Assembly (NCBI GenBank): GCA_016215105.1
Contig: JACRLJ010000128.1
Span: 1 to 34,021 of the forward strand
DNA: 34,021 nucleotides
Source: Candidatus Hydrogenedentota bacterium
GTDB lineage: Bacteria; Hydrogenedentota; Hydrogenedentia; Hydrogenedentales; SLHB01
Direction: 5' to 3'
Program-made: the position numbers and the translations under genes
The notes under the pieces: generated by a model
Told to the model about the DNA's origin: nothing
The model's input: the letters and a program-made list of their open reading frames with translations, nothing else
The model's database searches: none
Shown: positions 2,987 to 33,157 of the stretch, piece by piece
How positions within the stretch are numbered: position 1 is the stretch's first letter
Layout of the letters: each line of letters begins with the position of its first letter

Positions 2987-3065
2987 TGGTACCGAGGAAG
3001 GGGTTCGAACCCTTGACCTCTGGATCCACAATCCAGCGCTCTAACCAAACTGAGCTACCCCGGCC
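2987..3065 (-). tRNA. tRNA-His (anticodon GTG)
   Basis: Reverse complement reads GCCGGGGTAGCTCAGTTTGGTTAGAGCGCTGGATTGTGGATCCAGAGGTCAAGGGTTCGAACCCCTTCCTCGGTACCA. It folds as a cloverleaf with D-stem GCTC/GAGC, anticodon stem CTGGA/TCCAG, loop TTGTGGA (anticodon GUG), T-arm AAGGG-TTCGAAC-CCCTT and encoded CCA. It sits immediately upstream of hisS on the same strand. Confidence 0.85.
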
Positions 3066-14135: not shown

Positions 14136-14171
14136 AGCCTAGGTCTCCTCAAATGCGCGGGGTGTTTTTCA

Positions 14172-14495: not shown

Positions 14496-15875
14496 CTACA
14501 GCCTGATGTCTTTGAGTTTCCAACCCTTGCGGAAGGCCGGTTTGATGAACTCGTTGGCTTTCTCGTTGTTGGTGAAACGCAGGTTCTTGGCGTCCCACAG
14601 GAGTTCCTCGTTCGGGAACCGCCAACTGAGGGCGCCCAGCAGAACCCATTCCGTGTACGGACCCGCGATGCCGAAGGGCGAACACGTCTCGCCATCGCCT
14701 TTGCACGCCCGGATCCAGTTTTCGAAATGTCCCGGCGATCGCTTCAAAACCAGCGCAGGCAGGACATAATCCTTCATCTTGGCTCTCGGAAGCAGGGTCA
14801 CAGACTCGCCACGGCCTCCCGTTCCCATATACCCCTTCGTGCCTACAAATATCTCGTTGATGTCCTTCAGATCAGCTCCCGCGATTTCCGCAGGCGGCGT
14901 ATATTTTGCCGCCATGTTCCCTTCATACCAGTGGACCGTGACCGGCCCCATCCGGCCCCCGGGAACATACGGATTTGGACGGTCTGCGAATTTCATCTTG
15001 CACGCATAGTGCGGATAGGTGACCGGATTAACCCCCTCGACCGTGATGCACTGCACGCTCACTGGGCTGCCGAGTTGCAGACCCCAATTCGCCGGTCCGA
15101 GCATATGGATACCCCAATCGCCGATCATCTGGGAACCGTACTCCAGAAACCCGCGCCAGTTCGACGGATGAATCTTTGAACTGAAAGGATGCTGCGCTAC
15201 ACGGCCGGACCATAGATCCCAATCCAACGTAGAGGGCACGGGCTCGGCTGCGGGCCATGCGGTTATGTCGCGCGCAAAGCCGCCGCCGCACGTCGTGTGG
15301 ACCTCTGTAATGTCCCCGAGGGCGCCGCTCCACATGATCTCGCACGCCACCCGCGTGGCTTCCGAAGAGTACCCTTGGTTGCCCATTTGCGTCACCACGT
15401 TGTATTTCTTCGCGGCCTTCGTCAAGAGACGCGCTTCCCACACGCTCTGCGTGAGGGGTTTCTGGCAGTACACGTTCACCCCCAGTTTCATGGCGCGCAG
15501 CGCGACCGAGGCATGCATGTGGTCGGGTATGGTGATCGTGATCCCATCGAGATTCTTGTGCTCTTTGTCGAGCATCTTGCGAAAATCCCGGTACAACTTG
15601 GCCTTGGGAAACGCCTCCGCCGCCTTACGCAAGAACGCCTCGTCCACGTCGCAAAGGGCATAGATGTTCTCGCCACGCACGCTGCGGACATCGTTTAGTC
15701 CCTGCATTCCGCCCACACCGACGCAACCGATGTTCATCTTGTCGCTCGGCGCCTTCCGGCCCGAGGCCGCCACAACATGGCGCGGCACAATGGAAAAAGC
15801 CGCCGCTGCCACCGTTGAAGCCAGGAATTCCCGCCGTGTAAACCCTTTGTTGCGCATGAATCTGCTCCTGTACAT
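14496..15875 (-). CDS. Gfo/Idh/MocA-family NAD(P)-dependent oxidoreductase with Tat signal peptide
   Basis: Twin-arginine motif TRREFLASTVAAAAF. Rossmann motif NIGCVGVGGMQG and the typical Gfo/Idh/MocA core (ALCDVD..., DGITITIPDHMHA, YCQKPL). An alternative start at 15857 (MRNKGF...) has a better RBS. Confidence 0.85.
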   Translation of the reverse strand: MYRSRFMRNKGFTRREFLASTVAAAAFSIVPRHVVAASGRKAPSDKMNIGCVGVGGMQGLNDVRSVRGENIYALCDVDEAFLRKAAEAFPKAKLYRDFRKMLDKEHKNLDGITITIPDHMHASVALRAMKLGVNVYCQKPLTQSVWEARLLTKAAKKYNVVTQMGNQGYSSEATRVACEIMWSGALGDITEVHTTCGGGFARDITAWPAAEPVPSTLDWDLWSGRVAQHPFSSKIHPSNWRGFLEYGSQMIGDWGIHMLGPANWGLQLGSPVSVQCITVEGVNPVTYPHYACKMKFADRPNPYVPGGRMGPVTVHWYEGNMAAKYTPPAEIAGADLKDINEIFVGTKGYMGTGGRGESVTLLPRAKMKDYVLPALVLKRSPGHFENWIRACKGDGETCSPFGIAGPYTEWVLLGALSWRFPNEELLWDAKNLRFTNNEKANEFIKPAFRKGWKLKDIRL

Positions 15876-16238
15876 TTGGCCTCATGCCCGATTCGGCGCG
15901 ATTGTCGATCGCTTCGGGCTGAATGCGGCGCCTTCTCCTATCGTTACATCCCCCGAAAGTGTAGAACCGCTCAACTCCACGATTGCACGAGCGTCATGGT
16001 ATCAGTTTCGCCGCCCAGTTGAAACCTCCAAGTGTGACCGCCCAGGTAACTCCATTCGCCGATTGCACCCGCGGAATCTCAGCCTGTTCTTCAGCGAACG
16101 GTCAATCGCGTCGGAACGCATTTCACCTTGAAAGGCCCCAGATCCACAACGGTGAGTACGACATTTACCACGGCCACTTGATCGGGAAGAAGTTCGATTG
16201 TCCTGCAACGCGCCAACTGCCGAGTTTAGGATGAATCG

Positions 16239-17105
16239 TTGCGGTCCAGCCCATACCCCGTTATAATCGTTCCACCCAACGAAAAGAGACGAATCTTGAA
16301 GCCGAGCGATGTTCCCCTGGCAGCGATCTGCGCCGATATTGAGCGATCGTGCTCACTTTCTATTCGTAATGTCGAACATATTTCCCTGACCGCTCGCAGC
16401 GCGGTTTATCTTGCGGAAACGCCCAATGAACGAATGGTCCTGAAGCTATCCGCAAATTCCTCGCCGACTCTCACGTCAGCCCAGGAATTTCAGGCGCTTC
16501 AGGCAGTGCGTATCCAAGGGCAGGTTCGCGCTCCAGTTGCCGTGGCGCACGGTAAACACCTCGGAGTCAGTTGGCTTCTTCAGGAATTTCTTGGAGGAGA
16601 ATCGCTTTCAAGCTTCTTCATAAGCGAGACTCAGTGCGCGGATGATCACCTTGAAGACATTTTCCAAGCGGGGCAGCTTCTAGCCAAGCTTCACGCAGAC
16701 GCCAAGACCGGCCACTCTGCGCAACGTTCACTCGATCACGCGTTGGAAGTGGCTGCGTACAATCTCGAGAATTCCCTCTATGACCCGGACGAATTCTTGG
16801 GTATCGCGCCACCCGGCGAGATCTATGAGTATCTACGCACGCAGCGTCCAGATTCTCTGCGGGAATGTCTGCTCCATGGGGACTTTCGTCCAAAGAATAT
16901 CCTCGTACAGAAGAACGGTCAACTTGCCCTGATTGACTGGGAACACAGTTTCCCTGGCGATCCCTATTATGACCTCGCTGTCTTTGCTTACTACTGTAGT
17001 CAGGACAGCGTCTTGACCAGATTTCTCGACGGCTATCGGTTGACCGCTATTGATCGCGAGAGACTTCGCTATTTCGATCTGCTCAGTAAGCTTCTGAATG
17101 TCTAG
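16239..17105 (+). CDS. Phosphotransferase enzyme family protein (APH/choline-kinase-like fold)
   Basis: Catalytic motifs LLHGDFRPKNILVQKNGQLALIDWEHSFPGDPYYDLAVF (HGDxxxxN plus IDW/D). Start codon uncertain (TTG at 16239 or a downstream alternative). Lower GC than neighbouring genes. Confidence 0.7.
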   Translation: MRSSPYPVIIVPPNEKRRILKPSDVPLAAICADIERSCSLSIRNVEHISLTARSAVYLAETPNERMVLKLSANSSPTLTSAQEFQALQAVRIQGQVRAPVAVAHGKHLGVSWLLQEFLGGESLSSFFISETQCADDHLEDIFQAGQLLAKLHADAKTGHSAQRSLDHALEVAAYNLENSLYDPDEFLGIAPPGEIYEYLRTQRPDSLRECLLHGDFRPKNILVQKNGQLALIDWEHSFPGDPYYDLAVFAYYCSQDSVLTRFLDGYRLTAIDRERLRYFDLLSKLLNV

Positions 17106-17183
17106 CGAAAAGCGTCGCATTCCGGAAATCATCTGTTCGAATCTTTCGCTAGACGGGGCAACTCTAGTGCCTGCAATAAGAAA

Positions 17184-17209
17184 GCCCTTCGACGTACTCA
17201 CCGAAGGGC
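17184..17209 (-). terminator. Hairpin gcccttcg-N10-cgaagggc (repeat copy A of the tRNA-Pro terminator element)
   Basis: 8-bp perfect stem. On the minus strand it is followed by TTTCTTATT. Same stem sequence as the hairpin immediately 3' of tRNA-Pro at 28257-28282. Confidence 0.4.
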
Positions 17210-17327
17210 CGACTTGTAAGAATGACTGAACGTCTGCGGAAAGGGGGGCACTACCACTCGCGCAGCCGCGCGGCAGGATTCTGGTCTAGGGCGAAGGCAG
17301 GCACTATAATCAGCAGGGTCTGCGGGT

Positions 17328-19232
17328 GTGAACTGTTCTTGCGAGAATCCACTCATGATGACTTCTGTGATATGTACTGCCATCGTCGCGGCGCTGGGGG
17401 CCGAATGTGAGGGCGCCTCTATCCATATCGGATTCGACGCATTTCGAGAGGTCTTTGCCCCGGAGTCTGTGGGCGCGATCGATAGTCCCCAAGCGAAGCG
17501 GTATGTGGCGGAGTTCGATTGTGAGCTGGAGGATCTGATAAAGGGATTCGATTTCGAGAAAGGACTGCTGGACCTGCACGGGGAAATGCCGCCGCCGCAA
17601 ATAGCCGAGCTTGATCGCTTGTCTCGCAAGGTATACGCCGAGCGCAAGGAATACCGGTGGCTGTATCAACAGAGCCGGCAGTCGGCGTCTGTGATTGGAA
17701 ATATGGCTTTGGCCTGGGCGCTGCCGATTTCCGAGCATTCTGGGGACGAGCGGTTTCGGCAAGGAGTGATCCGCGGTATACAAGCCTACCTGGAACATCA
17801 GGCCCCTTCCGGCGAGTTTCAGTTCTGTTCCATACGCTTTAGCAGTGTGTACGGCACACACGAAATGGCTTGGCGCCTCGAGCCGTTGCTGGCAGCCTAC
17901 CTGTGTATCCGCCATACGCTGCCGCCGGAGCAGGATCACCGATTTTATGAAGGGCTGCTTCGCGCGGCCCAATATCTGTACGACACGCCGTGTTCGTCGG
18001 AGACGAACCGCGGGTGTGTTTGGTGCGGGGTGATGGCGGGTGCCGCCAAGGTGTTTTCCAGGCCGGAGTACGCGGAGCGCGCGCGCCAAATTTGGGCGGG
18101 AGTAGGTCCGCGCGTGTTTGACCCGTCCGGACAGGTTGTCGAGGGGTTGGGGCCGGATATGGGGTACTCGTTCATTTCGCTTCTCTATACCTTTCGTCAC
18201 CGAACGGCATCGAAAAACGCGGAACTTGACGCTCCCCTGATGCGCGCCTTGGATTGGTTCTCCACCGTCCACGATTCCAATGGCTTGCCGATGCAGTTCA
18301 TTTCGTCCCGTACAGAACAATTCGCGCCGGACAGGCTTGCGTATCTCTTAAGCGCGCTTGAGTATTACGCGCGCGAGCGGCCCTACTATGCGACACTCGC
18401 GCATGAGTATTTCGATATCCTCGGGCGAAGTCATGGCCACTACGCGTGCGACCACGGTGGAATCCCGTGGATAACGGCAGCCTTATACCACAACCCCGCG
18501 ATACTTCCCGCCCCGTTGCCCGATTCGTTGCTGCGATTCACCACGGAATACTCGGGGGAGGTAACCGGCTACTTGAATGTCCGACGCGACTACAGCGCAG
18601 TCGTGGTGTTTGGAGGAGTAAAGGACTTGTGCGGTTTGCAGCACTGGACGTTGGCCGGAGAACGTCCACTCATATGCGAGTCGCCGAAGAGCCGGTCGAG
18701 CGTAAAGGCGTGGGGCCTCGATACGTCGCGTAGTCGAGTGCTTACGAGTCATCGCCGGGATTCGAGCGATCTGGAGACGGCGTCAATTGATTGGGGAGGA
18801 ATCCGCACGTGTTACGTCTTTGGGGACGGCGTCACCTGGGTTTTCGATGTTGCTCCGAACCTGAAGCGTGAGGTGAGCTGGGCCATTAACAAGAACGTGT
18901 GCGCAGAGCCGAGGCTCGAGGATGGCGCTATCCGGACAGAGAAGCAGAAATCGCGTATCAACGCGGGTCCCGTTGCTCCGTGTCTTGACGAAGTAGAGAC
19001 TGGCTGGCACGTGCGTGTCGTCGTGCCCGACAACCAGCCTGTCGACTGGACCATCTTTCACGACGGCTCGGCCGGTCCGGTAACGGCGGGGTTTAAGGAC
19101 GGAATCCTCACGGCCAACCTGACAAGTGAGAACGCAACCTATGATCTAGTGTACAATGCGGGAGAGAGGGCGTTCACGGTTGATGAGGCAGAATTGAAGC
19201 CGCGTCAGGTCCGAGTCCGGCGTGCGCGCTAA
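17328..19232 (+). CDS. Hypothetical protein, possibly heparinase II/III-like polysaccharide lyase fold (tentative)
   Basis: 634-aa ORF with genome-typical codon usage. N-terminal hydrophobic segment MMTSVICTAIVAALGA. The RSHGHYACDHGG segment loosely resembles the GHxHxD region of the heparinase II/III family. The overlapping antisense ORF 17310-18320 is Arg-rich and judged spurious. Confidence 0.5.
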   Translation: MNCSCENPLMMTSVICTAIVAALGAECEGASIHIGFDAFREVFAPESVGAIDSPQAKRYVAEFDCELEDLIKGFDFEKGLLDLHGEMPPPQIAELDRLSRKVYAERKEYRWLYQQSRQSASVIGNMALAWALPISEHSGDERFRQGVIRGIQAYLEHQAPSGEFQFCSIRFSSVYGTHEMAWRLEPLLAAYLCIRHTLPPEQDHRFYEGLLRAAQYLYDTPCSSETNRGCVWCGVMAGAAKVFSRPEYAERARQIWAGVGPRVFDPSGQVVEGLGPDMGYSFISLLYTFRHRTASKNAELDAPLMRALDWFSTVHDSNGLPMQFISSRTEQFAPDRLAYLLSALEYYARERPYYATLAHEYFDILGRSHGHYACDHGGIPWITAALYHNPAILPAPLPDSLLRFTTEYSGEVTGYLNVRRDYSAVVVFGGVKDLCGLQHWTLAGERPLICESPKSRSSVKAWGLDTSRSRVLTSHRRDSSDLETASIDWGGIRTCYVFGDGVTWVFDVAPNLKREVSWAINKNVCAEPRLEDGAIRTEKQKSRINAGPVAPCLDEVETGWHVRVVVPDNQPVDWTIFHDGSAGPVTAGFKDGILTANLTSENATYDLVYNAGERAFTVDEAELKPRQVRVRRAR

Positions 19233-19407
19233 TCCAGTTATTCATGGTTGATGCCGTCATTATTCAGGGCCGCGTGTGCGCAACCGGCTTTTGCGAGGAT
19301 GCCGGTGGCGAGAGCGAATATCGCGCGAAGTCTTTCGTGCCTAGACCAGATCGCCGTACCGTTTCACGGCTGCGCGCCTCTGGTCCGTTCAGGTGAGGCG
19401 CCTCACT

Positions 19408-19526
19408 CTACCCCTTGCGATTGAGTTTCGGTGTGGGCGTTGCGGGAGGCTAGTTCCACCAACGAGAAAGCCCTTCGACGGAAACGGCGAAGGGCTGATT
19501 CTTGGAGATAGTCGGGGCGACTGGGC
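19408..19526. repeat. Repeat copy B: ~119 bp homologous to the region flanking the tRNA-Pro 3' end (28195-28311), including the terminator hairpin and a 17-nt tRNA acceptor-end fragment
   Basis: ctaccccttgcgattgagtttcggtgtgggcgttgcgggaggctagttccaccaacgagaaagcccttcgacggaaacggcgaagggctgattcttggagatagtcggggcgactgg versus D ctaccccttgcgtttgaatttcggtgggcgtgttgcgcgaggctagttccaacaatgagaaagcccttcgacctggttgccgaagggctgaatcttaaagatggtcggggcgactgg. Confidence 0.75.
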
Positions 19527-19693
19527 GAGGACAGAACTATTCTGGATCGGGATTGTCGAGCTTCCTCCAATTGTCCCTTAGGATCCGGCCGTAACGCACA
19601 CGTAAATAGTCGTCTTCGAGACAAGCGCGCTCGGCCCATTCGCGGCCCGCGTGGCCCACGCTTCCTGGTCGCGAGAACAAAGATTAGCACCGT

Positions 19694-20403
19694 TCACTTT
19701 GCCTCGAACCGCCAAGGCCCATCCCGGCTAACAAAGACATCCGGATTTGTCGGAGGCGAGAGCAGGCCGCCCGCGCCGTAGTCCAGCTCGAATTTCAGTT
19801 GTTCAATCTTCTGACGGCCTTCTCGGCCGACCTCAACCATAAACTGTACGTAGCCAATGAACGGGAGCTGTTTGTTGAAGAAATCGGGTTGTTGCTCGAC
19901 CATCCATTTTACCGCCGCCTCTTCGTCACTCTTCCAGGGCACATCCTGCCCGTTGTACGACGCCAACATATCTTTGTACTGAGCGCGCTCCGACTCTGGC
20001 ACACGAAGTGTCCCGTGGTAGCTTTGCTTGGGGTGGGCAGGGTCAACGGGCGGCTGATCACACGAAAGAGCTTGCCAAGTGGACCAATGCTTGCGGTCGG
20101 GACTGTACCGGGCGAAGAACTGTCCCGGAGGCAGGGCAGTGGAATTGTTTTGAATCTTATACTCTCCCGGCGGCACAACCTCGGCGCGCATTCTCACCGC
20201 GTACACCGTCCTCCAGGACCAGCCCACCGCCACAGGTTCGGTTTGAAGTGTCTGCGGATCGGTCCATGACGCCTTTTTCGCAGCCTCCGTGGGTTTAGTA
20301 AAATCGATGATCAGAGAATTGTTCCCCTGGATCACGGATTCCGCACGACAAGCGAACAGAATCGGACTCAGGATCGCGAGGAACGCCAACGGCTTGTTCA
20401 TTT
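19694..20403 (-). CDS. Secreted hypothetical protein
   Basis: Likely start ATG at 20403 (GAAGGGG RBS) giving MNKPLAFLAILSPILFACRAESV, a signal peptide. No recognised domain. The longer ORF extending to 20566 has no RBS. Confidence 0.5.
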
Positions 20404-20508
20404 GATTGCCCCTTCTACCCGTGGGTATCCAAAAACAAAAACACTTGGGGTTGCACCCTATTCCGGTTTGAACCGAAGTAAGGCTCGCCCCTTCTTGAGA
20501 TTGTGAGT

Positions 20509-21417
20509 TTAGTTCTGAATTGGACTCGCACCTTGGCTCTTCCTTTGACGAAGGATTTCCGCCCACGCCGGGATATACGGATACGCTCCCGAGCGGTGAA
20601 ACTCTACGTGGCCGTCCATGTACAGCACGTTTCCACCATCTGGCGTGTGGTTGAAGCTAATCTCGGTTGAGGAAGATTCGAACGTATCAAACGCAACCAC
20701 GGTGCGAACCCGCGCCCAGGCATCCCACCCGCCAGGCGGATCGGGCCCGTTAATATCGGTCAACATGAATCGTTCGAGGCCATTTCGGAGGCGGAGCACA
20801 GTTTCGGGTTTGGTGTAACTTTTGGGGCCTCCCACGAGGACAAACCGGCCAATACCGTTGTGCCCTCCCTCTAGCTTCACCTCTCGCAGTTTTCCGCTGT
20901 GCAGCGCGTCGAGGATGCCCGCAACGGTTTTATCGGCTGAATAGTATTTCGGGTCGGTGAACCAGGCCTCTCTAATCATGAGCCCAAGGTAAATATACGA
21001 CGAATCATCAAATCGGCACGGGTCGGACACTCCGTCCGCACCGACCCAGTCTCTTGCGCTTACGCGCTTCGCGTTGGTCGGGCACACCAGGATACTGGGA
21101 TCTGTCAAATACGTTGGGTAAAGCGATGAGCCGTTCACCATGAATACGCTTGTATTTACGTTACTGCAGCCAGGGCCAATATGGTCCTGAATTGGCGGAT
21201 AGTATCCGTTGTTTTCATCGGCGTAGAGCCGGCACGCAACGCTGAATTGCTTGAGCCGCATCTGACAGGCCGCCTTCGGATGAAAGATGTCGGCGTTATA
21301 GATGCGCGGCGCAAGTAATACCAGCAGAAAGAGAAGACCTAGCAACCCTATGATGACAACGAATTCACGTGTTGAAACACGGCGCCGGTGCGATTCATTT
21401 GCGGGCTGCTGGTCCAT
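20509..21417 (-). CDS. DUF1559 (H-X9-DG) family protein with prepilin-like N-terminal segment
   Basis: N-terminus RRRVSTREFVVIIGLLGLLFLLVLLA followed by ACQMRLKQFSVACRLYADENNGYYPP. C-terminal HTPDGGNVLYMDGHVEF is the H-X9-DG motif. GGAGGGG RBS. The family is characteristic of Planctomycetota. Confidence 0.8.
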   Translation of the reverse strand: MDQQPANESHRRRVSTREFVVIIGLLGLLFLLVLLAPRIYNADIFHPKAACQMRLKQFSVACRLYADENNGYYPPIQDHIGPGCSNVNTSVFMVNGSSLYPTYLTDPSILVCPTNAKRVSARDWVGADGVSDPCRFDDSSYIYLGLMIREAWFTDPKYYSADKTVAGILDALHSGKLREVKLEGGHNGIGRFVLVGGPKSYTKPETVLRLRNGLERFMLTDINGPDPPGGWDAWARVRTVVAFDTFESSSTEISFNHTPDGGNVLYMDGHVEFHRSGAYPYIPAWAEILRQRKSQGASPIQN

Positions 21418-21635
21418 ACCGTTCCCCTCCGGTCAGCAAACGTAACACTGGGTGCTGAGCGCATTATATCAGAGGGCTTTGTCGGAAAGGAGGTAGACCG
21501 GGGACTTCGGGGTTGATTCGCTGCGTGAGAGACGGAGATTTTCGCACAGTCACGGGAAGACGTAAACAAACGAGAAATGAAGATTCGTCGAGTAAGTTTC
21601 CTCACAACGGACGGTTTAGCGCTGCCCTCAAAACA

Positions 21636-21722
21636 AAAACCCTCCGACGTGCTCGCCAAAGGGCTGATTTCTAAAGATGGTCGGGGCGACTGGATTTGAA
21701 CCAGCGGCTCCGGACTCCCAAG
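21636..21722. repeat. Repeat copy C: degenerate terminator hairpin plus 45-nt fragment of the tRNA-Pro 3' half (T-arm and acceptor end)
   Basis: tggtcggggcgactggatttgaaccagcgg (21678-21707) is identical to the 3' 30 nt of tRNA-Pro, with similarity continuing to ctcccaa (the anticodon-loop region). The upstream ccctccgacgtgctcgccaaagggctgatttctaaaga matches the D-copy terminator with mismatches. Confidence 0.75.
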
Positions 21723-21784
21723 ACCATTAGGAAGTATTGCCTTTGCGGCGAAATGCCAATCCTAACGGATCGACACTACAGGTC

Positions 21785-24013
21785 TTAGTTTGGCGGCGTC
21801 CACCACGCCATCGAATCCGACCCGTTGCCGGTCTGGAACTTGCCCGTGACCGTCAACGAATCCAGATCAATGACGTGGACGCCGTCCGTCTCTTCACACC
21901 CTGCGAACGCGTGCTTGCCGTCGGGAGACAACTCGAGTCCAATGGCCCTGCTCCCCACCGGCAAACATTTGATCTCCGTCAGTGTCGCAACATCTAGAAC
22001 GACGACTTCACCCTTCTCCGTCCAACTGGACACCAGCGCTCGCCGGCCATCGAGCGTGAAGCGTATCCGGACAGGTTTTCCAGGACACGGAATCGTCTTG
22101 ACGGGGGTATGCGTCGCCAGATCGATGATCGTGATGCTGTCGCCTTCCTGATTGAGAGCCCACAACTGCTTCCGATCGGGCGTGAAGGCCATTCCTTCGC
22201 ACCCCTTCCCGCAAGGGATCTGCGTGATCAGCGCGCCCGATTCCCGGTCGATCACGGAGACGTTCTGCGTGTCGATGTTTGCGGTGTACAGCCGCTTGTT
22301 GTCGTGCGAGACCAGGACCATGTGCGAAATCTTGCCGTGGGTAGGTATACCGCGCGTGACCTTGTTGGTCTGAGTGTCGATTTCCACGACAAAGCCCGTC
22401 TGGCCCGCCGTAAAGTAGGCGTGTTTTCCATCGGGCGCCATCGCGGCTCCGTGGATACGCGAGTACTCGCCCGTGGAAATCTGCGCGACGTGTTTGCGCT
22501 CCACCAGATCGATCACCGACACCGTATTTCCCGGCGGCGCGTAGTTCGAGAGATAGGCAAAGCGGCTGTCCTTTGAAAGCACGATTTCATGGGGGTTCGG
22601 CCCGGTGGGAATCTTCGCGATCGGCTCCAGGGTCCGGGGGTTGACGAAAGAGATGGTGTCCTCGTGCTTGTTTAAAACTAGCAGAACGTCCTGATCGGGC
22701 GGAAGCTTGCGTGGATCGCCGAGTTCGTTCAGCAACTCAAATGGCGGCTCTTTGCCGCCTTCGCGCGTAGTAAAGAAATTGTAGACCATGAGACCATCGG
22801 CGCCATCCTCCCAGAGCCACCGCGCGATCCGGCGATAGGTGTCTTTTGAAGGCTCGACTTCAATGGAGGCGTAGATCGGCAGGCCGGCGGGAAACACGCG
22901 GCGGTACTCGCGAACGGGTAAGGGAAAGTCGTTCCGGAGGTAGTGCGACACGGTCACGAAATCCACGATCCCCTCCTTCGCCCAGGCGATGGGATCGATA
23001 CCGATGGCCCGATTCTGTTCCGGCAGGGCCATGATGCGGACGGACAACCGCACGGGACGCCCGCGTTCTTGACCTATCTCCCGCGTCATGCGCCGCACAT
23101 CGCGCATCCAGCCGGTCATGACCGCTACGTTTTCCGATTCCTTGCCGGGCGAAAAGTACATGGGAAACCGCTGGAAGTCCAGGTCGAGGCCGTCGATCGG
23201 ATAGCGCTCGCAACACTCGCGCAGCTCCGCGAGCCGCTGCTGCCGCACTTCGGGAACGGCGTAGTTGAGACCGCCAGGCAGCCAACTCCCCACGACCGGG
23301 TGCGTCCGGGGACCGAGGATTTGGACGTACACACTGGACAACGCATCGCCCGGTTTTCCGATGCGCCAATCGGGATGCTCCTTCCAGAATCGCGACAACA
23401 GTATGCTGTCGGATTCGTCAACCGCGTGGACTTCGTTCAGCCGAAACGTGAGGAAGGTTTCCAGGCCCTTTTCTTTCGCGCGGGCTACGATAAGACCTAG
23501 AGGGTCATGGCCGGCGTCAACCAATGCCCTCAGATTCACTGCCGTCCGTTCAAGAGAGCCCGGCTTCGTTGCTGCCGGGTCCTTGATAGTCTCGGCTACG
23601 GCTGGACTCAGGCGCGCGCCCAACATTTCCGACGCCTTCCCGGGAAAGTTGACGTTCATTCCGACGTTGGGGCTGATGAAAAGCGACGTGGCGCCAGCCC
23701 TTCCAATCTCGTCGACGTAACCCAGGACGTCGGCGGGCTGCATCGGGTACGCTTTGTATAGGAACATGTTGTCGCCATCGCTATTGTAGATGAGACGGCG
23801 GCGCGCGTCGCTCCCGCCGGTGTGTTTCTCGTCTACAGGACCAGTGTCTGCTTGTGCGACCATGATTTCCGCTCCTACGGACGAATTCTGAATGCGGCCT
23901 CTCTCGCTGCCCCAGCGAGTGTTGTCAATGCCGAACTGGTGAGAATCATCTGGACAAGGAACGATCAGAACGCCAAACGCGACTGCGGCCACGATCCCCA
24001 ACACACTTGACAT
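21785..24013 (-). CDS. Secreted two-domain protein: glycoside-hydrolase-like TIM-barrel region plus C-terminal YVTN-type beta-propeller repeats
   Basis: Start ATG 24013 (GGGAGG RBS), signal peptide MSSVLGIVAAVAFGVLIV. Central YPIDGLDLDFQRF resembles the DGxDxDxE strand of GH18/GH-like barrels, with Q in place of E. The C-terminal ~350 aa contains at least 6 repeats of the ~40-aa YVTN beta-propeller pattern (e.g. LYTANIDTQNVSVIDRESG, LWALNQEGDSITIIDLATH). Confidence 0.6.
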   Translation of the reverse strand: MSSVLGIVAAVAFGVLIVPCPDDSHQFGIDNTRWGSERGRIQNSSVGAEIMVAQADTGPVDEKHTGGSDARRRLIYNSDGDNMFLYKAYPMQPADVLGYVDEIGRAGATSLFISPNVGMNVNFPGKASEMLGARLSPAVAETIKDPAATKPGSLERTAVNLRALVDAGHDPLGLIVARAKEKGLETFLTFRLNEVHAVDESDSILLSRFWKEHPDWRIGKPGDALSSVYVQILGPRTHPVVGSWLPGGLNYAVPEVRQQRLAELRECCERYPIDGLDLDFQRFPMYFSPGKESENVAVMTGWMRDVRRMTREIGQERGRPVRLSVRIMALPEQNRAIGIDPIAWAKEGIVDFVTVSHYLRNDFPLPVREYRRVFPAGLPIYASIEVEPSKDTYRRIARWLWEDGADGLMVYNFFTTREGGKEPPFELLNELGDPRKLPPDQDVLLVLNKHEDTISFVNPRTLEPIAKIPTGPNPHEIVLSKDSRFAYLSNYAPPGNTVSVIDLVERKHVAQISTGEYSRIHGAAMAPDGKHAYFTAGQTGFVVEIDTQTNKVTRGIPTHGKISHMVLVSHDNKRLYTANIDTQNVSVIDRESGALITQIPCGKGCEGMAFTPDRKQLWALNQEGDSITIIDLATHTPVKTIPCPGKPVRIRFTLDGRRALVSSWTEKGEVVVLDVATLTEIKCLPVGSRAIGLELSPDGKHAFAGCEETDGVHVIDLDSLTVTGKFQTGNGSDSMAWWTPPN

Positions 24014-24466
24014 GTATGAACCTCCCGCGTGCCCGAGCGACAAAGACCTTCCAGCAAAACCCCGTGCAACAGAGTGACCTCGTAGCGCCGGCGTCCTCGC
24101 CGGCTCGGTACTGACGCTCTGAAGCCGCCGGGACGGCGGCGCTACGTTGATTGAGCGACGGTTCTTTAGAAGTTCAAAGTCACTGTATGGAAGCCTCAGA
24201 CACAAATCAAACCGGTGAATAGCCCTGTGGTCCCCAGTTCTGCAATCGTTACTTGCGAAGCGGGTTGCGATGGTCACAGTTCTTCGGCTAGGAATCCGGC
24301 CAGAAAGCCGGCTTCTTGACCGCGCCTCCGGGCAGGCTGTACGAGAGGATGGCACTCAGTGGGAGAGTTTATACGGATGCGCTTTGCTCAGGAATACCGT
24401 CGTCTTCGCGGTCGTTTCCCTAATCAAAGCATAGGAGGGTGTCCTGTGTCGCGACGACTGCGCCCC

Positions 24467-26118
24467 ATGGCATGGACATTACCGGGAGGTCTCATTGTGG
24501 AGCGCTCTGCGCGCGCACGGCTGATCGTTGGCTCTGTCTTCCTGGTCGCATTGTTCGTTTTGTGTCCTGCGGCCCCGGCGCAACTCTGTGTGGACGCACG
24601 AAACCTTACCGGTACGCCGGACGGTACCGCAGCGAAGCCGTTTCGAACAGTTCAATCGGCGGTCGACGCGGCCGCTTCCGGGCAGTCCGTACTCGTCGCC
24701 ACGGGCGCCTTTGGGGAAGACGTGCGCGTCGAGAACAAGACCGTCACGCTGCTGGGAGGTCATACGGGCGGCACGCCCGGCCAATATGGCCTGGGGACGG
24801 CGGGGGATTTCACCAGGAGTCGGTGGTAACCCTGATTGAAGCAGGCCCCAGTGTCGTGGACGGATTCCGCATTACCGGCGGCGGTGGCAGCACGACCGAT
24901 CTGCCGTACTCGTCGAATGGTGGCGGGATATTTGTGCGGGGCGGGGCGCCAGTTATAAGGAACAACGTGATCGCGAACAACGACCCACGCCGGCCCGGAG
25001 ATGTCTCGACTTTCGGTGGCGGTATCTATTCAAACAGCGCTGACATTGCGATCGAAAACAACACCATCTCGGAGAACATCGCCATGCGCGGCGCTGGAAT
25101 CGCTGCGGTTGGCGGGACGGTGGTCATTAGCGGGAATACGGTCCGGGCGAACGTGGGATACGGCGACCACGGCGGGGGCATGTATGTCGGAGCGCCAAAC
25201 GCCACTATTACGCACAACCGCATCTACGAAAATGAGATCGGCCGTGACCTCGGATACGGATGGGGCGGCGGCATCATTATTTTCAATCAGGGAAACCACG
25301 CGGACCTTTCGTACAACGAAGTGTTCAGCAATTACGCGCCGGGTCACGGGGCGGGCATCTTTGTGGACGAAGGCGCCACGGCGGTGCTGCGAAACGAGAT
25401 TGTGCATCACAATATGGTGGACGCCGGCGAGACAGGCGGGGGGGCTGTATACGTGGACGGCGGCGAGTTCAACGGTGTCCCGATCGGTTCCGTGGTGAGC
25501 ATCATCAATTGCACAATCGCTGAAAACCCCGTAACGGATGCGTATCTGGGCGGGAACGCGCTTTTTGTGGAGGGGAACTCCACCGTTACTGTACGCAACA
25601 GCATCCTGTGGGGGAACGGACTGGAGGTCTGGTTCGACAACACGTCCACTGTCCAGATCACCTATAGCAATATTGCGGAGAGTATCGCAGGCGCCGGCAA
25701 CATATCCCAGAATCCTCTCTTCGCCAATGCGGCTGCGGGCGATTTCCACCTGAAATCTGAAGCGGGCCGCTGGGACCCCGCCGCGAACTCGGGGGCAGGG
25801 AGCTTTGTCCTGGACGCTGCCACAAGTCCGTGCATCGACTCAGGCGACCCTGTAGATAGCTTTGCGTCCGAACCGGCGCCCAACGGCGGGCGGATCAACA
25901 TGGGCGCTTACGGGAACACGCCGGAAGCCAGCCTATCCACCCACGGCGGGGGTAATCCGCCCACAGATCTGAATGACGACGCCGCGGTCAACGCGGTCGA
26001 TGTACAACTGGTCATCAACGGCGCGCTTGGGGTGGGCGGCGCCGCCGACGTGAATACCGACGGATTCACGGACGCCGTGGACGTGCAATTAGTGATCAAT
26101 GCGGCATTGGCGGCATAA
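24467..26118 (+). CDS. Secreted right-handed parallel beta-helix (pectate-lyase-fold) protein with C-terminal dockerin-type repeat pair; reading frame shifts at a G-run near 24800
   Basis: Frame of ORF 24359-24829 encodes signal peptide MAWTLPGGLIVERSARARLIVGSVFLVALFVLCPAAPAQ and the first helix rung (PFRTVQSAVDAAASGQSVLVATGAF). Frame of ORF 24439-26118 continues with NN-rich beta-helix rungs (VIRNNVIANN, IENNTISENI, GNTVRANVG...) and ends with DLNDDAAVNAVDVQLVINGAL / DVNTDGFTDAVDVQLVINAAL dockerin-like repeats. Junction is at ggcgggggattt (~24795-24806). Confidence 0.5.
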
Positions 26119-26470
26119 GAAATCACGCTGACGGCGCGCGTGGCGCCGTTCGATGACTTCGGATGAATGGGGGCCCTGATTCGTTCGTTCCCATCCCATA
26201 GATCGTCACTCCGAATGGGTATGGGCAGAACGGAACCAAGAACGTCGCCGATTCCATATCTCCGACCGGAACTCACCGCAAGAAAGCCAGTGACTCGCTG
26301 CTGCAAGCCAATGACCTGAAAAAGACTTATATGGTCGGGGCGACAAGACACCGTTAGAACTCCTTCTGGCTGGCGACTGGGATTGAGAAGCGCACCTGCA
26401 GCAATTGACCGGCACTTTGGCCGATGGGAGATGTGGCCCCGACGTCGCCAGAGAGGTCGTCCGAGCCATT

Positions 26471-26531
26471 CAACCAAATGGTTGACATCTGCGGAATTCC
26501 GATGTATGATTCAACCATATGGTTGAATCAC
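26471..26531 (+). promoter_or_regulatory. Sigma70-like promoter (TTGACA 26482-26487, N17, TATGAT 26505-26510) flanked and overlapped by two perfect palindromes TCAACCA-AA-TGGTTGA and ATTCAACCA-TA-TGGTTGAAT
   Basis: Read directly from the sequence. The two dyads share the half-site CAACCA/TGGTTG and bracket the -35 and -10 elements. This is the classic layout for ArsR/SmtB autoregulatory operators upstream of the ArsR-family gene. Confidence 0.55.
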
Positions 26532-26875
26532 TCCAGAGCTCAATGCCATGCCGGCTCGATAGAGTCTTCCACGCCCTGTCTGATCCTACGCGGCGGTCGA
26601 TCCTGCGGGACATCGCTAAACAGGAAAAGACGGTGGGGGAGATCGCGCGCCCCTACCGCTCCTCGCTGGCGGCAATCTCTAAACACATTCAGGTGCTGGA
26701 GAGTTCGGGGCTGGTGACCCGCCGAAGGCAGGGCAGTTTTCGGTACGTAAGGATCACACCAATGCCGTTGAAGGAAGCCCAGCAGTGGCTGTCCTTCTAC
26801 GAGTCATTCTGGAATGAGCGACTTGACGCTCTAGCAGACCTGTTCACAAAACCCGAGAAAAAGGATAAGCCATGA
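26519..26875 (+). CDS. ArsR/SmtB-family transcriptional regulator
   Basis: VFHALSDPTRRSILRDIAKQEKTVGEIARPYRSSLAAISKHIQVLESSGLV is the ArsR wHTH signature. An alternative start at ATG 26543 (MPCRLDRVF...) is possible. Stop overlaps the next gene start (ATGA), suggesting an operon. Confidence 0.8.
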   Translation: MVESLQSSMPCRLDRVFHALSDPTRRSILRDIAKQEKTVGEIARPYRSSLAAISKHIQVLESSGLVTRRRQGSFRYVRITPMPLKEAQQWLSFYESFWNERLDALADLFTKPEKKDKP

Positions 26876-27891
26876 ACCCTGCAGCAGTTACCCGAAACGT
26901 TGTCCGTATTTCGCGAACTATCCCGGCGACTCCGCATCAGGTCTACCGGGCTTGGCTGGACCCGGACCTAATCAGACGCTGGATGGCGCCTGGCGCTTTC
27001 GAAGCTACGCGCGTCGAGGTGGATGAGCGAATTGGTGGCCGATACCGGATCTGGCACGCGGACGCCGGCGCTTCCGTCGGCGGGTTCGAATGCGAAATAC
27101 TTGAACTGGACCCCGACCGGCGCATCGCTTGGCGGTGGGGTTTCGCCGGTCCCGACCGTGCGGAGGGACCGATCTACGACTCCCGGCTCCACATCACACT
27201 GCACGAAACTCCCGATGGCAGCACCGTGATTGACCTAGTTCACGAGCACCTCGATGACGTTGCGGCGGCGCTGCCCAACGTCATAGAGAAGGTCGCAGAC
27301 GGGTGGGAGAACGTTCTATCGAAATTGAGCGTTGCACTGTCCGCTGCCCCTCGCTCTTCCAGTGCATCACGTGAACCAAGCGAAATGCGCAAGCCTGTGT
27401 TTACCGAGACGATGCAGATCGGCATCGTGGTGCGCGACCTCGACGCGGCCGTGCGAAGCTACACCGACGACTACGGTATCGGACCGTGGGAGTTCTACCA
27501 ATTCAAGCCCGAAGACGCCAAAGTTTGGCTTGAGCATGGCCAGCCGGCCAAACCGTCTACGCGTATCGCGATGGCGATGGTTGGCAAGGTGCAGTGGGAG
27601 CTGATCGAACCGCTCGACGACAGGAGCATTTTTGCGCAGTTCCTCGCCGCGACGGGCGGGGGCGTGCACCACATCGCCGTCGCATCGACGAACTTCGACG
27701 AGATCCTGGCGGCAGAGGCAAAACGAGGGAACGATTTAGTCCTTAGTTGCGAGTTGGACGGCGCGTTCAGCGGCATCAAGGTCGCGTACCTCGGCGCCCA
27801 GCGCAATCTTGGAGTGATCCTTGAGGTATTCAGCGGTCTGCCCCCTGCTAAGGCCGAATCACCCGATGCGCCTGACCGCGGCGGCAAGTAG
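26872..27891 (+). CDS. Fusion protein: N-terminal SRPBCC/AHSA1-like domain plus C-terminal VOC (glyoxalase/bleomycin-resistance/dioxygenase) domain
   Basis: N-terminal ~150 aa (RTIPATPHQVYRAWLDPDLIRRWMAP...GGRYRIWH...) resembles AHSA1/SRPBCC proteins commonly co-encoded with ArsR. After a Ser/Pro-rich linker, MQIGIVVRDLDAAVRSYTDDYGIGPWEF...GGGVHHIAV is a VOC fold. Continuous ORF with no stop between the domains. Confidence 0.7.
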   Translation: MNPAAVTRNVVRISRTIPATPHQVYRAWLDPDLIRRWMAPGAFEATRVEVDERIGGRYRIWHADAGASVGGFECEILELDPDRRIAWRWGFAGPDRAEGPIYDSRLHITLHETPDGSTVIDLVHEHLDDVAAALPNVIEKVADGWENVLSKLSVALSAAPRSSSASREPSEMRKPVFTETMQIGIVVRDLDAAVRSYTDDYGIGPWEFYQFKPEDAKVWLEHGQPAKPSTRIAMAMVGKVQWELIEPLDDRSIFAQFLAATGGGVHHIAVASTNFDEILAAEAKRGNDLVLSCELDGAFSGIKVAYLGAQRNLGVILEVFSGLPPAKAESPDAPDRGGK

Positions 27892-27948
27892 GCTTTTGCA
27901 GAGTCAGGGCTCCCTGAGCCGCCGCGGCGGGCGAGCCTATCGTTCGGC

Positions 27949-28194
27949 TTGGAGAGGAGCGACGGCTTGAAAGCGATGCAAGCAATTCAGATCGCGCTGA
28001 AGTTCAGCGACGGCGGCATGAAGCGGCTGGAGGAGATGACGGCTGATCCGCTCGTGCGGCCGGGTCCGTGGGGCGGTAGCCGCGCAATGTGGATCGGCGG
28101 GCATTTGGCCGTCATCGAGGGCCGCCTGCACAAGATGTTTCCCGGCACGCCAAGTGGTGTTCAAAGGTTTGGTGCTTTCGGTAGGGGCTTTGTT
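27949..28194 (+). pseudogene. Possible DinB/YfiT-like family gene fragment truncated at the boundary of repeat D
   Basis: ORF 27949-28317 begins LKAMQAIQIALKFSDGGMKRLEEMTADPLVRPGPWGGSRAMWIGGHLAVIEGRLHKMF, loosely resembling the DinB_2 N-terminal helices. From ~28195 the reading frame runs into the repeat shared with copy B, so the C-terminal half of a DinB-like protein is missing. Confidence 0.25.
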
Positions 28195-28311
28195 CTACCC
28201 CTTGCGTTTGAATTTCGGTGGGCGTGTTGCGCGAGGCTAGTTCCAACAATGAGAAAGCCCTTCGACCTGGTTGCCGAAGGGCTGAATCTTAAAGATGGTC
28301 GGGGCGACTGG
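28195..28311. repeat. Repeat copy D: the native flank and terminator immediately 3' of tRNA-Pro, homologous to copy B
   Basis: See copy B alignment. Includes the hairpin gcccttcg-N10-cgaagggc (28257-28282) and the first 16 nt of the tRNA acceptor end. Confidence 0.75.
28257..28282 (-). terminator. Rho-independent terminator of tRNA-Pro (minus strand)
   Basis: Read on the minus strand: AGCCCTTCGGCAACCAGGTCGAAGGGCT followed by TTCTCATTGTT, beginning 13 nt after the tRNA CCA end. Confidence 0.55.
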
Positions 28312-28372
28312 ATTTGAACCAGCGGCCCCCTGCTCCCAAAGCAGGTGCGCTACCGGGCTGCGCCACGCCCCG
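28296..28372 (-). tRNA. tRNA-Pro (anticodon TGG)
   Basis: Reverse complement CGGGGCGTGGCGCAGCCCGGTAGCGCACCTGCTTTGGGAGCAGGGGGCCGCTGGTTCAAATCCAGTCGCCCCGACCA. Perfect 7-bp acceptor stem CGGGGCG/CGCCCCG, D-arm GCGC-AGCCCGGTA-GCGC, anticodon stem CCTGC/GCAGG with loop TTTGGGA (U33, anticodon UGG), T-arm GCTGG-TTCAAAT-CCAGT, encoded CCA. Confidence 0.9.
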
Positions 28373-28472: not shown

Positions 28473-29459
28473 TTACTCGGGTGTTACGGGCAGACCGGCG
28501 TGTGTGAAGATCGAGTGGGCCATAAAGCCTAGCGTAATCAGCCATGCGGCAAGTGAAACCCAGTACGCCAGGGTCCATACGAATTCCCAATGGTTCTTGC
28601 GAACCAGGTTGGGTTCCGGGACGACACCGAGAATGAGACCGCCCAGCATGCCCCCGACGTGCGCGGCGTTGTTCGCGCCCATAAACAGCCCGAACAGAAT
28701 TCCGTATCCGGCCCATTGCACGAGGAAGCGCGTGTACATCTTGCCGGCGCCGCCTTGGGTGTTGAAGTAGGCGATCCCGAACCCAATAAGTCCGAACAGC
28801 CATCCCGATGCGCCGGCGGAGATAGCGAAGGTGTTTCCCCATACGCCCGTGTACCACGCGTGGGACGCGGCGGCTGCGGCCAACTGGGTTCCGGTAATCA
28901 CGACGAGCATGCGCCGCGCGCCAATGAAGTGCTCTATCACCGGCCCCAACTGGATCAGGGCGGTGAAGTTAAAGAGGATGTGAATGGCGCCGATGTGAAT
29001 GAGTCCGAAGGCGAGTTCGCGCCAGTAGTCACCGTTTGCCGTGATCGTGACGGGAGACCAGGCGCCCAGCGTCATGAGAGTTCTTCCCGAGGGCATCATC
29101 AAGCCGCCGGGCCCGTCCAGCATCAGCGACACGCCGAAAAGCCCGATCATCCCCAGGAGGAAGATTGTCACCGTCGGCGTGGCGCCTTCGGGAACCATCA
29201 GGCCCAGGAAGCGGAACAACCGGTATGCCCATACCGAGTACACCGGGCTGTTGCAGGCGGGACAGACCGACGCGTCGCGGTGAACGAGCGTGCGGCATTT
29301 CGGACACGCCTTATGCGGATAGGTGAGCCACTTCAGCGCGGCGGGAAGCCGGGGACCCGTCTGTACGCGTTTCTCCCACTGATAGAGCTTCCACTGCACC
29401 CGGGTCGAGTTGATCCCGATTGCATCGAGGAACTTGCGTTGTCCTGGACTAAGCTGCAC
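28473..29459 (-). CDS. Rhomboid-family intramembrane serine protease with N-terminal zinc-ribbon
   Basis: GTG start at 29459. N-terminal CPKCRTLVHRDASVCPACNSP (C-x2-C...C-x2-C). Six TM helices with catalytic GASGWLFGLIG (GxSG) and downstream AHVGGMLGG (catalytic His). Confidence 0.85.
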   Translation of the reverse strand: MQLSPGQRKFLDAIGINSTRVQWKLYQWEKRVQTGPRLPAALKWLTYPHKACPKCRTLVHRDASVCPACNSPVYSVWAYRLFRFLGLMVPEGATPTVTIFLLGMIGLFGVSLMLDGPGGLMMPSGRTLMTLGAWSPVTITANGDYWRELAFGLIHIGAIHILFNFTALIQLGPVIEHFIGARRMLVVITGTQLAAAAASHAWYTGVWGNTFAISAGASGWLFGLIGFGIAYFNTQGGAGKMYTRFLVQWAGYGILFGLFMGANNAAHVGGMLGGLILGVVPEPNLVRKNHWEFVWTLAYWVSLAAWLITLGFMAHSIFTHAGLPVTPE

Positions 29460-29926
29460 GTGTCTCCCGCTCGATTCTCACCGGCCCAGAGCAGAATCGC
29501 ACGAACGAACTGACCCGGTCAAACTGGTGTGCGCCGCAGTCGTGCGACGGCCGCCGCCCGTGCAGGGTGACTACGGCGCTATCTAATACAGAACTGTACT
29601 GACCAAACCTGTCATGTTTCTTGGTTTTGGTGCTATACTGAAGTCGGCCAAACTATGTAACTCATTCGCGGTCAAAGGACAACAGCGTTCTTGGCCCCGG
29701 AAGGCCGTCTGGCACTGGAATTGCCTTACCAAACCCGTAGTATCGGGCGACGGCGGTCGCTGTGCCCACCTCGCCACGATTGCGTCTCGAACTTTCACCG
29801 TCGAGGTGTCTCTCTATGCTTACGATTGAAGCAGAAAAAGCGGGTCCTTACAACCGATCGGCGTGGCTGTACGGCACACGCGGCCCCTGCGAACCGACAG
29901 GGCTTTTCCCCAGCAGACCGTTTCGA

Positions 29927-30619: not shown

Positions 30620-30793
30620 CCCAGCAATTCGCAGAGTTTCCGTTACAGCGCGGGGTCAGTCGAGAACGCCGCGTGACATGGTTTTCCGGGAATGATAGGC
30701 TCTTCCGGAGGGTACGATGCCCTTCCGGGAGAGCTTCCTTTGTTTTGGAGTGTCTCGGGCCTTGAGTCTATACATGAGCGTAAAGGATGAACC

Positions 30794-33154: not shown

Positions 33155-33157
33155 CGA

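Follow-up and report, generated by a model that had tools for sequence, protein, structure and literature searches.

Introduction

Cis-mobilizable elements (CIMEs) are units flanked by attachment (att) sites that lack recombination and conjugation modules; integration by an integrase acting in trans is their proposed means of mobility, and they accrete in tandem with ICEs (integrative and conjugative elements) and IMEs (integrative and mobilizable elements), as in the ICESt1-type systems of streptococci. A similar arrangement was found in the 11 kb downstream of the tRNA-Pro(TGG) gene of a Candidatus Hydrogenedentes metagenome-assembled genome (MAG), where four partial copies of the tRNA 3' end, its terminator, or both divide the DNA into small segments of mutually unrelated genes. 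The window analyzed here is the entire 34,021-bp contig of this MAG that carries the locus. We propose, with a probability of about 0.7, that the 11 kb are a decayed tandem array produced by serial integration of tyrosine-integrase elements at the tRNA gene.

Like CIMEs, the segments of the window are arranged in tandem, are flanked by att-like sites and carry no mobility genes, and the equivalent site is also used by an integrase-bearing element (integrase plus TrwC relaxase) in a pair of sister genomes, L071 and L075, that share one cassette with the window. Unlike the streptococcal systems, which occupy another target, these units are located at tRNA-Pro in Hydrogenedentota and in a lineage that is probably Planctomycetota, no partner ICE or IME with matching att sites was found in the 34 kb available from the window's own genome, and they are known from sequence alone.

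In the Islander survey, 3' fragments mark 3760 of 3919 islands, and 125 tandem arrays of at least two islands and four of at least three were recorded; a member was accepted into an array only with its own integrase, and the main crossover classes were centred on the anticodon or located in the T-stem region (PMC4383910). Like these arrays, the window contains an intact tRNA gene and displaced 3' fragments in direct orientation on the same strand (21678-21722, 19510-19526 and 26331-26344), and the fragment lengths fit both crossover classes (45 nt in copy C, which reaches the anticodon loop and contains a 37-nt block of identity, and 17 nt in copy B, which begins between T-loop and T-stem). 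Unlike the Islander arrays, the window has an integrase in none of its four units, the units are very small (1.8-4.6 kb), and the terminator and as much as about 125 nt of flanking DNA belong to the repeats. Because no unit contains its own integrase, the locus is not a canonical Islander array; it works like a degraded one.

Tycheposon-built islands of Prochlorococcus have been explained by nearly the same model that an earlier note on this locus had put forward, including scattered partial tRNAs left by older events (bioRxiv 10.1101/2020.12.28.424599). Unlike those islands, the window carries no tycheposon hallmark genes and no integrase fragments. Integron arrays are comparable by analogy only, in that small cassettes in the same orientation, each ending in a structured site, are added serially at one fixed dock. 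In contrast to integrons, no IntI-type integrase with an attI site adjoins the array, the sites are derived from tRNA and do not resemble attC, and the cassettes have their own promoters and regulators.

The array is probably the ordinary, previously described footprint of repeated insertion at one tRNA gene followed by integrase loss, and it is not an integron. Since the accretion-and-decay model is established for tRNA-linked islands, no new mechanism is proposed. In a candidate phylum that has been little sampled, the locus shows clearly how a tRNA gene seeds a small variable region; its added value is a regulator/enzyme pair shared at 85% DNA identity across distant lineages, with the att junction included. 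For annotation, arrays of tRNA 3' fragments and terminators can mark acquired DNA even where an integrase is absent, and the degree of fragment decay should not serve as a chronology.

Repeat modules downstream of tRNA-Pro

The intact tRNA-Pro(TGG) gene is the anchor of the array and an attL-type junction. From the tRNA outward, the modules follow in the order D, E, C, B, A, all in the tRNA sense and in the same orientation; D denotes the module at the intact gene, and A, B, C and E denote partial modules.

28296-28372, minus strand: intact tRNA-Pro(TGG), CCA encoded (ARAGORN; Rfam RF00005, 65.4 bits)
28170-28295, minus strand: module D, with a 12-nt spacer, a terminator hairpin with U-tract (28256-28283) and a distal flank of about 85 nt that B shares
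26284-26400, minus strand: module E, with 14 nt of the tRNA acceptor end (26331-26344), its own, different hairpin with U-tract (26284-26317) and a stretch on the tRNA-interior side (26345-26400)
21636-21722, minus strand: module C, with the 3' 45 nt of tRNA-Pro from anticodon loop to CCA (21678-21722) and a hairpin (21638-21665)
19381-19526, minus strand: module B, with the 3' 17 nt of the tRNA (19510-19526), a hairpin (19469-19496) and a D-homologous distal flank of about 85 nt
17164-17224, minus strand: module A, with a perfect-stem hairpin (17183-17210) and about 20 nt of distal flank, without a tRNA part

The earlier note had proposed five such copies, and all of them were recovered, at or very near the places where it had put them, by ARAGORN, Rfam, a repeat finder, pattern searches and shuffle-controlled alignments. 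The hairpin of D folds at -23.3 kcal/mol and gives a terminator-like match on the minus strand. Module B aligns with D over 19381-19524 and 28170-28311 (z = 58 versus shuffles; 81% identity over 129 nt ungapped), its hairpin also folds at -23.3 kcal/mol, and the homology spans about 125 nt of downstream flank past the tRNA. The tRNA part of B begins at the junction of T-loop and T-stem. The distal flank of D contains two direct copies of TTTCGGT(A/G)GG about 37 nt apart (28176-28188 and 28213-28224), and similar motifs are present in B; as a speculation, these are candidate arm-type protein-binding sites.

Module C (21636-21721) matches D (28254-28339) at 85% identity over 86 nt (z = 35). Within this alignment is a perfect block of 37 nt (21672-21708 = 28290-28326), made up of 31 nt of tRNA 3' end and 6 nt downstream, while identity outside the block is 75-79% on both sides (P = 0.0025 for such a perfect run, given uniform placement of mismatches). 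The 3' strand of the anticodon stem, which lies in the diverged part of C, reads GTCCG versus GCAGG in tRNA-Pro and can be likened to the foreign tRNA-Pro mimics described below. This mosaic has the pattern that would be expected of an att core between heterologous arms. The C hairpin (-22.9 kcal/mol) is also a terminator-like match, and its stem pairing is kept, via G.U pairs, only in the tRNA-sense RNA.

Module E was identified by an exact 14-nt match (ATGGTCGGGGCGAC, 26331-26344), for which about 6e-4 occurrences are expected in the window by a composition-based estimate. By itself E is marginal in local alignment (z = 4-5), and it is corroborated by homologous sites in L071. Its hairpin (-17.2 kcal/mol) is followed by the same GGCUUUCUUG tail. 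An extension of E into a near-full-length decayed tRNA (GGCGACTGGGATTGA, 26372-26386) was marginal, with 20-21 of 1000 shuffles scoring as high, and was not relied on. Module A aligned over 17164-17216 with z = 11-12 versus shuffles; it points to termination on the minus strand, yet both of its neighboring genes are on the plus strand. At least two types of site appear to be represented, an anticodon-loop type (C, 45 nt) and a T-stem/acceptor type (B, 17 nt; E, 13-14 nt).

The modules were also described as patterns, with AGAAAGCCCTTCGAC-N8-CGAAGGGC as the motif of the D type and TCGGGGCGACAAGAC...GAACT as that of the E-type site. The composite hairpin pattern had four matches in the window versus 0.00 expected, and the pattern of hairpin arm, spacer and acceptor end had three versus 0.00 expected. 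The module was found neither in the other 23 kb of the contig nor at any other locus fetched.

In the tRNA sense, all five hairpins have fold energies of -17 to -23 kcal/mol. The three highest-ranking terminator-like matches in the region are those of A, C and D, each on the minus strand. As GC-rich stem-loops followed by a U-tract, the module hairpins are predicted Rho-independent terminators. Among A, B and D, none of 16 stem positions differ, versus 29-42% of loop and neighboring positions (Fisher P = 0.001-0.014). This conservation, together with the G.U-compatible changes of C, indicates that the copies diverged over a long time under selection for a working terminator and did not decay freely in place. 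Such divergence is more in keeping with related elements that contributed their arms than with local duplicates that decayed passively.

The earlier note had further described a gradient of decay that increases with distance from the intact gene. This gradient was not borne out: E, at 2 kb, is the most reduced copy, B, at 9 kb, has the longest flank homology, and C has the longest tRNA part. Thus, no strict chronological outward push can be read from the modules.

Context of tRNA-Pro and viral attachment sites

In the nearest relative found, L003 (rhomboid 66-67% amino acid [aa] identity), the position of tRNA-Pro downstream of the rhomboid gene is kept, and the order of genes is the same as in the window: a gene, a glycoside hydrolase (GH)-like gene, adk, rhomboid and tRNA-Pro. 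The backbone genes of the window match those of L003 in order at 61-72% aa identity (tblastn). This four-gene synteny ends exactly at tRNA-Pro, although at 67% aa identity L003 is too distant to show an empty site, and nothing in the 9.6 kb of L003 downstream of its tRNA-Pro, which are repeat-rich, non-coding and include an IS110, matches any part of the window. The native terminator of L003 is loosely similar in outline to those of the modules (AGCCC...GGGCTTTTCT).

Downstream of tRNA-Pro, L003 has about 2.8 kb of gene-free DNA (11400-14150) in which long units recur (12150-12330 and 12870-13050 are examples, and there are partial copies in inverted orientation); an IS110-family transposase comes next. 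In L003, then, the same tRNA has an insertion hotspot of another kind. Two other loci, L058 and L064, carry units downstream of tRNA-Pro that look like its 3' half but have the T-arm exchanged (GGGAGCAGGGGGTCGTCCCGACGCAAGGTCGGGATCGCCCCGACCA); L058 has a tandem series of the unit, and L064 has at least one.

Further candidates for comparison were not informative. A scan of genome contigs gave a single 50%-identical locus without a tRNA, which was of no use; 21 metagenome loci with an identical or near-identical tRNA-Pro belonged to unrelated organisms and had neither synteny nor a matching terminator; and an apparent synteny in L005 (rhomboid followed by GFO/IDH/MocA) was rejected, the GFO genes being paralogs with 25% identity. 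An exact-protein lookup of the rhomboid and GFO genes gave no match.

Viral contigs show how elements that target tRNA-Pro are built. Among IMG/VR contigs containing the 3' 25-mer of tRNA-Pro, 32 of 40 carry a fragment of about 45-50 nt, in which the part from T-arm to CCA is identical and the anticodon stem is variable; in many cases a hairpin and T-run of the fragment's own come directly after it. A tyrosine integrase was located near the fragment in at least 20 of the 32 contigs, mostly within about 20-320 nt. A tRNA 3' piece with its own terminator is thus the standard attP architecture for a tRNA-Pro target, which explains the presence of a terminator in each module of the window. These temperate-phage attP sites (L009-L047) are like the window modules in their T-arm-to-CCA identity, in their variable anticodon stem, as seen in C, and in having their own terminator hairpin. 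They are unlike them in that the integrase adjoins the site and in that neither their hairpins nor their flanks show sequence relationship to the modules. The composite motif of hairpin and tRNA end had no matches in viral contigs or in JGI metagenomes, and the E-type site had none in viral contigs.

A cassette shared with a distant genome

The segment between E and D encodes a regulator and an enzyme-like fusion protein, followed by a gene remnant.

26519-26875, plus strand: ArsR (Pfam, NCBIfam)
26872-27891, plus strand: SRPBCC(AHSA1)-VOC fusion (Pfam, NCBIfam)
27949-28170, plus strand: truncated DinB_2-family gene, first ~67 residues only (normal length about 150-170 aa)

Window positions 26334-27843 match L071, part of an 8.8-Mb contig, at 84.7% DNA identity, and the match starts at fragment E (blastn, tblastn). 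The shared block consists of the att-like junction, the operator/promoter region, ArsR (91.5% aa identity) and SRPBCC-VOC (79% aa identity). In contrast, the backbone genes reach only 61-72% aa identity with the closest relative found. Because its tRNA-Pro is only 80% identical to that of the window, L071 is a distant genome. The lineage of L071 and L075 is probably planctomycete, on the basis of ArsA cluster-mates named Gemmataceae or Planctomycetia (ArsA itself being cargo), replicons of 8.8-8.9 Mb and N_methyl-type genes.

The organization of L071 parallels that of the window. After its tRNA-Pro(TGG), acceptor-end fragments in direct orientation occur at 11877, 9463 (degenerate) and 8698, which bound integrase-less segments in the order tRNA, ars operon, site c2, RibD_C / SRPBCC-VOC / ArsR, site c1, a 148-aa gene and site c0. 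The fragment-side stretch (...GTCTTGTCGCCCCGA, preceded by AGTTC.A...) is conserved between E of the window and the L071 sites, with 26345-26400 shared with two to three of them and, weakly, with B. Sites c0 and c2 are identical over 37 nt; these perfect direct repeats (AAAAAATCGGGGCGACAAGACGGCTATTGAACTTTTT, 8692-8728 and 11871-11907) flank 3.2 kb with ArsR, SRPBCC-VOC and RibD_C, and the outer repeat abuts a perfect palindromic hairpin. The 3.2-kb unit looks recently formed, or it may be an integrase-less unit that is still excisable. The L071 island ends at c0, because for the genes directly outside this site the sister genome has mates with at least 90% identity.

Over 5.7 kb, L071 and the sister genome (L075/L076, an 8.90-Mb contig) agree at 99.76% identity. 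This agreement reaches 1 nt past the tRNA-Pro 3' end, and farther on the two are unrelated. Past its tRNA-Pro, the sister genome carries a 351-aa Phage_integrase 168 nt away; after the integrase come N_methyl genes and genes for a TrwC relaxase, ParA-like, RPA and Fic proteins and a resolvase. Thus, in this lineage, the tRNA-Pro 3' end demonstrably exchanges alternative elements, with and without an integrase. This clean polymorphism was seen only in the L071/L075 pair, which is unrelated to the host of the window and shares one cassette with it. For the L075/L076 element, the match of a distal att site candidate at 12068 (10/11) was not significant.

The ArsR and SRPBCC-VOC pair was also present, with the same 4-nt overlap, the same operator and about 83% DNA identity, in L072/L073 and in L074 (9585-11028). 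These are three further unrelated contexts (78-80% aa identity) with neither a tRNA nor an att-like site nearby, which suggests that the gene pair also moves or persists independently of tRNA-Pro sites.

Upstream of ArsR in the window, a palindromic pair (GAGCCATTCAACCAAATGGTTGA / TCAACCATATGGTTGAATCACTC, 26463-26533) overlaps a sigma-70-like promoter with 11 of 12 matching positions (26482-26510). The palindromic pair is probably the ArsR operator, and a stretch of 23-24 nt of this palindrome/promoter region is 100% conserved in L071 and L074. At the other end of the segment, residues 7-74 of the DinB_2 query align with residues 1-68 of homologs, the longer of which (148-172 aa) match DinB_2. 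The truncation coincides with the start of module D and would mark a recombination or deletion junction.

Search for an integrase

No integrase, resolvase or other recombinase domain was detected in the large open reading frames (ORFs) of the 34-kb contig. A six-frame search of the contig with 18 integrases of tRNA-Pro-targeting elements and with their profile gave a best profile E value of 0.96; in the control set, that profile picked up 20 positives. The earlier note had regarded the missing integrase as the unusual part of the locus. Its absence from the 34-kb contig holds, but it is not unusual, as integrase-less att-flanked remnants and tandem arrays have been documented.

Proposed mechanism and alternative explanations

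We hypothesize that elements with a tyrosine integrase targeting the 3' part of tRNA-Pro integrated by site-specific recombination. Each incoming element would bring a replacement tRNA 3' end and its own terminator, so that the tRNA would stay intact and terminated, and the previous 3' end, with whatever lay after it, would be displaced to the far side of the element. Repeated rounds would yield an array that runs from the tRNA and the D-terminator through cargo, E, cargo, C, cargo, B and cargo to A, in which each internal junction would be a hybrid of one arm from one element and the other arm from its older neighbor. Integrase and mobility genes would later have been deleted, or some units may never have had them and may have been inserted in trans, leaving cargo packets of 2-5 kb bounded by att scars. 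As a tentative parse, units E-D and B-C could each have a D-type hairpin arm on the tRNA-proximal side and an E-type arm on the distal side, and unit C-E could have different arms on both sides, namely, E's own hairpin and C's 45-nt tRNA mimic.

Serial site-specific integration had been suggested by the earlier note, and it is retained here on the strength of the synteny break relative to L003, the core of C, the viral attP architecture, the shared E-D junction and the integrase of L075, but without the gradient and chronology that had been attached to it. For the window itself, we infer that the junctions were made by an integrase, that they arose as successive events and that the integrase was lost.

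Several results weigh against this interpretation. No strain-level relative of the MAG was found in the collections searched. Foreign origin is demonstrated for E-D only, one of four segments, and the search with the B-C proteins returned homologs of at most 48% identity and no close relative; the view of the segments as acquired cargo thus holds for E-D, and horizontal origin is not shown for the other three. Profiles of GC content, GC at third codon positions and tetranucleotides are nearly flat and almost uninformative, with B-C as the only outlier in a comparison without a length-matched control. The contig has neither an integrase nor a remnant of one in any of its frames; in genuine elements, an integrase is retained no more than a few hundred nt from the fragment. 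Module A has a perfect hairpin but no tRNA core, tRNA similarity on its right side being at chance level, and the order of events is unreadable from the degree of decay. Finally, the homology among A to D that continues past the tRNA (about 125 nt in B) calls either for related elements whose arms were alike or for host flank that was captured, and Campbell-type homologous integration would leave it just as well.

This last point leads to an integrase-independent origin, in which RecA-dependent (Campbell-type) recombination of circular or linear foreign DNA with the tRNA-Pro 3' end, terminator and flank, or local segmental duplication, would have duplicated the whole stretch each time. The long downstream homology of B and D and the downstream-only copy A fit such events better than they fit a short att core, and the window has no integrase. 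However, C has a sharply bounded, perfect 37-nt core between diverged arms, and the tRNA parts begin at classical sublocations (anticodon loop and T-stem/acceptor). In addition, the same cassette is present in a distant tRNA-Pro array whose tRNA (80%) and flanks are too different for homologous recombination, and an integrase element occupies the equivalent site in the sister genome. Simple tandem duplication is excluded because the cargo segments are mutually unrelated, and we consider an integrase-independent origin unlikely overall. Similarly improbable, in our assessment, is a capture platform of the integron kind that is still active at the tRNA-Pro 3' end. Such a platform would contain integrase-less cassettes of 1-5 kb and one to a few genes, each with a pseudo-tRNA-3'-end/hairpin site of about 45-60 nt, that are serially inserted and excised by a tyrosine integrase in trans, encoded for example by an ICE or IME like that of L075, and exchanged between phyla, with ArsR and SRPBCC-VOC moving between Hydrogenedentota and the distant, probably planctomycete, lineage. 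An integrase is indeed absent from four of four units in the window and three of three in L071, the 37-nt identity around the 3.2 kb of L071 suggests a recent or excisable unit, the ArsR/SRPBCC-VOC unit has the same junction in two distant genomes, and an integrase targeting the same tRNA end exists in the sister genome. Set against this, there is no sign of activity in the form of circular junctions or polymorphism in the lineage of the window; C, E and A are degenerate, A is without a tRNA core, and a cargo gene is truncated at D. The gene pair also occurs in L072-L074 without any such site, and the site family was not found in viral contigs or JGI metagenomes.

Two explanations that involve no mobile DNA, or no real array, are far less probable. 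The modules could belong to a generic family of terminator-associated repeats, or be remnants of an old tandem tRNA-Pro cluster: their hairpins score as the best intrinsic terminators of the region, B and C are placed where they would terminate minus-strand cargo operons, and the native terminator of L003 has a loosely similar outline. Yet B, C and E hold tRNA-Pro 3' sequence in register beside the hairpin and none has the 5' half, the module is missing from the other 23 kb of the contig and from the other loci fetched, A is oriented against both neighboring genes, and the evidence from L071 and L075 would be left unexplained, so that this origin appears highly improbable. An assembly chimera, joined through k-mers shared by tRNA and terminator copies, might be suspected in a metagenome-assembled contig with an exact 37-nt block common to C and D; two independent assemblies are interrupted at this block. 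Logan contigs that were each assembled from a single run, with two runs represented, nevertheless reproduce the window at 100% identity over 14547-21701 (L069/L070) and 24291-28319 (L002). The former take in A, B and the hairpin side of C, with the A and B junctions confirmed in L069, and the latter takes in E and the D flank up to the T-loop of the tRNA; the Logan contigs break only within the block common to C and D, and a 37-nt repeat, being shorter than the reads, was resolvable by the assembler of the contig. Because the independent assemblies match at 100%, a chimera is very unlikely. At worst, the left and right arms of C and D might be exchanged, which is the sole ambiguity left, and such a swap would remove no module. 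Serial integration at tRNA-Pro by tyrosine-integrase elements remains the reading that we prefer.

Cargo segments and neighboring genes

The remaining segments and the chromosomal backbone contain the following features.

17225-19380, plus strand: A-B cargo, a 634-aa ORF (17328-19232) without a detectable family
19527-21635, minus strand: B-C cargo, a 302-aa protein (20509-21417) whose C terminus has an H-X9-DG motif, and a secreted protein of unknown function with 235-290 aa (19694-20566)
21785-24355, minus strand: C-E cargo (segment 21723-26283), an 856-aa GHL10-like (weak) and beta-propeller protein (Pfam, NCBIfam)
24439-26118, plus strand: C-E cargo (segment 21723-26283), a 559-aa beta-helix/dockerin protein (Pfam, NCBIfam)
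28473-34012, mixed strands: chromosomal backbone 5' of the tRNA, with rhomboid, adenylate kinase, GH-like protein and a 284-aa gene (Pfam; tblastn versus L003)

The functional labels given to the cargo by the earlier note agreed with these results for ArsR, SRPBCC(AHSA1) plus VOC, beta-helix/dockerin, GHL10 (weak)/beta-propeller and the truncated DinB_2. The label "heparinase-like" for the A-B protein had to be dropped, the 634-aa ORF having no match in Pfam, NCBIfam or PDB, and the label "DUF1559" in B-C found weak support in the short H-X9-DG C-terminal motif (NCBIfam, 21.8 bits). Segment B-C has the lowest GC content (0.55) and the lowest tetranucleotide correlation with the core (0.70).

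At window position 24815/24816, inside the beta-helix/dockerin gene, L002 has 46 extra bases (526-571; ACCGCGATCCCAACC...GGAGC). The insertion shifts the frame, giving a gene of 572 aa in L002 versus the 559-aa ORF in the window, and the difference represents either strain variation or an assembly deletion in the MAG.

Outside the array, two APH-family phosphotransferase paralogs (8580-9464 and 16239-17105) lie in stretches of lower GC content (0.53-0.55). Because the second paralog directly adjoins copy A on its outer side, the variable region may reach past A towards tRNA-His (2987-3064); no extra copies of the 3' end of that tRNA are present in the window. Two adjacent ORFs on the minus strand (7091-8175), separated by stop codons, have weak matches to DDE_Tnp_1; they look like a degraded insertion sequence transposase pseudogene and are the sole other trace of a mobile element on the contig.

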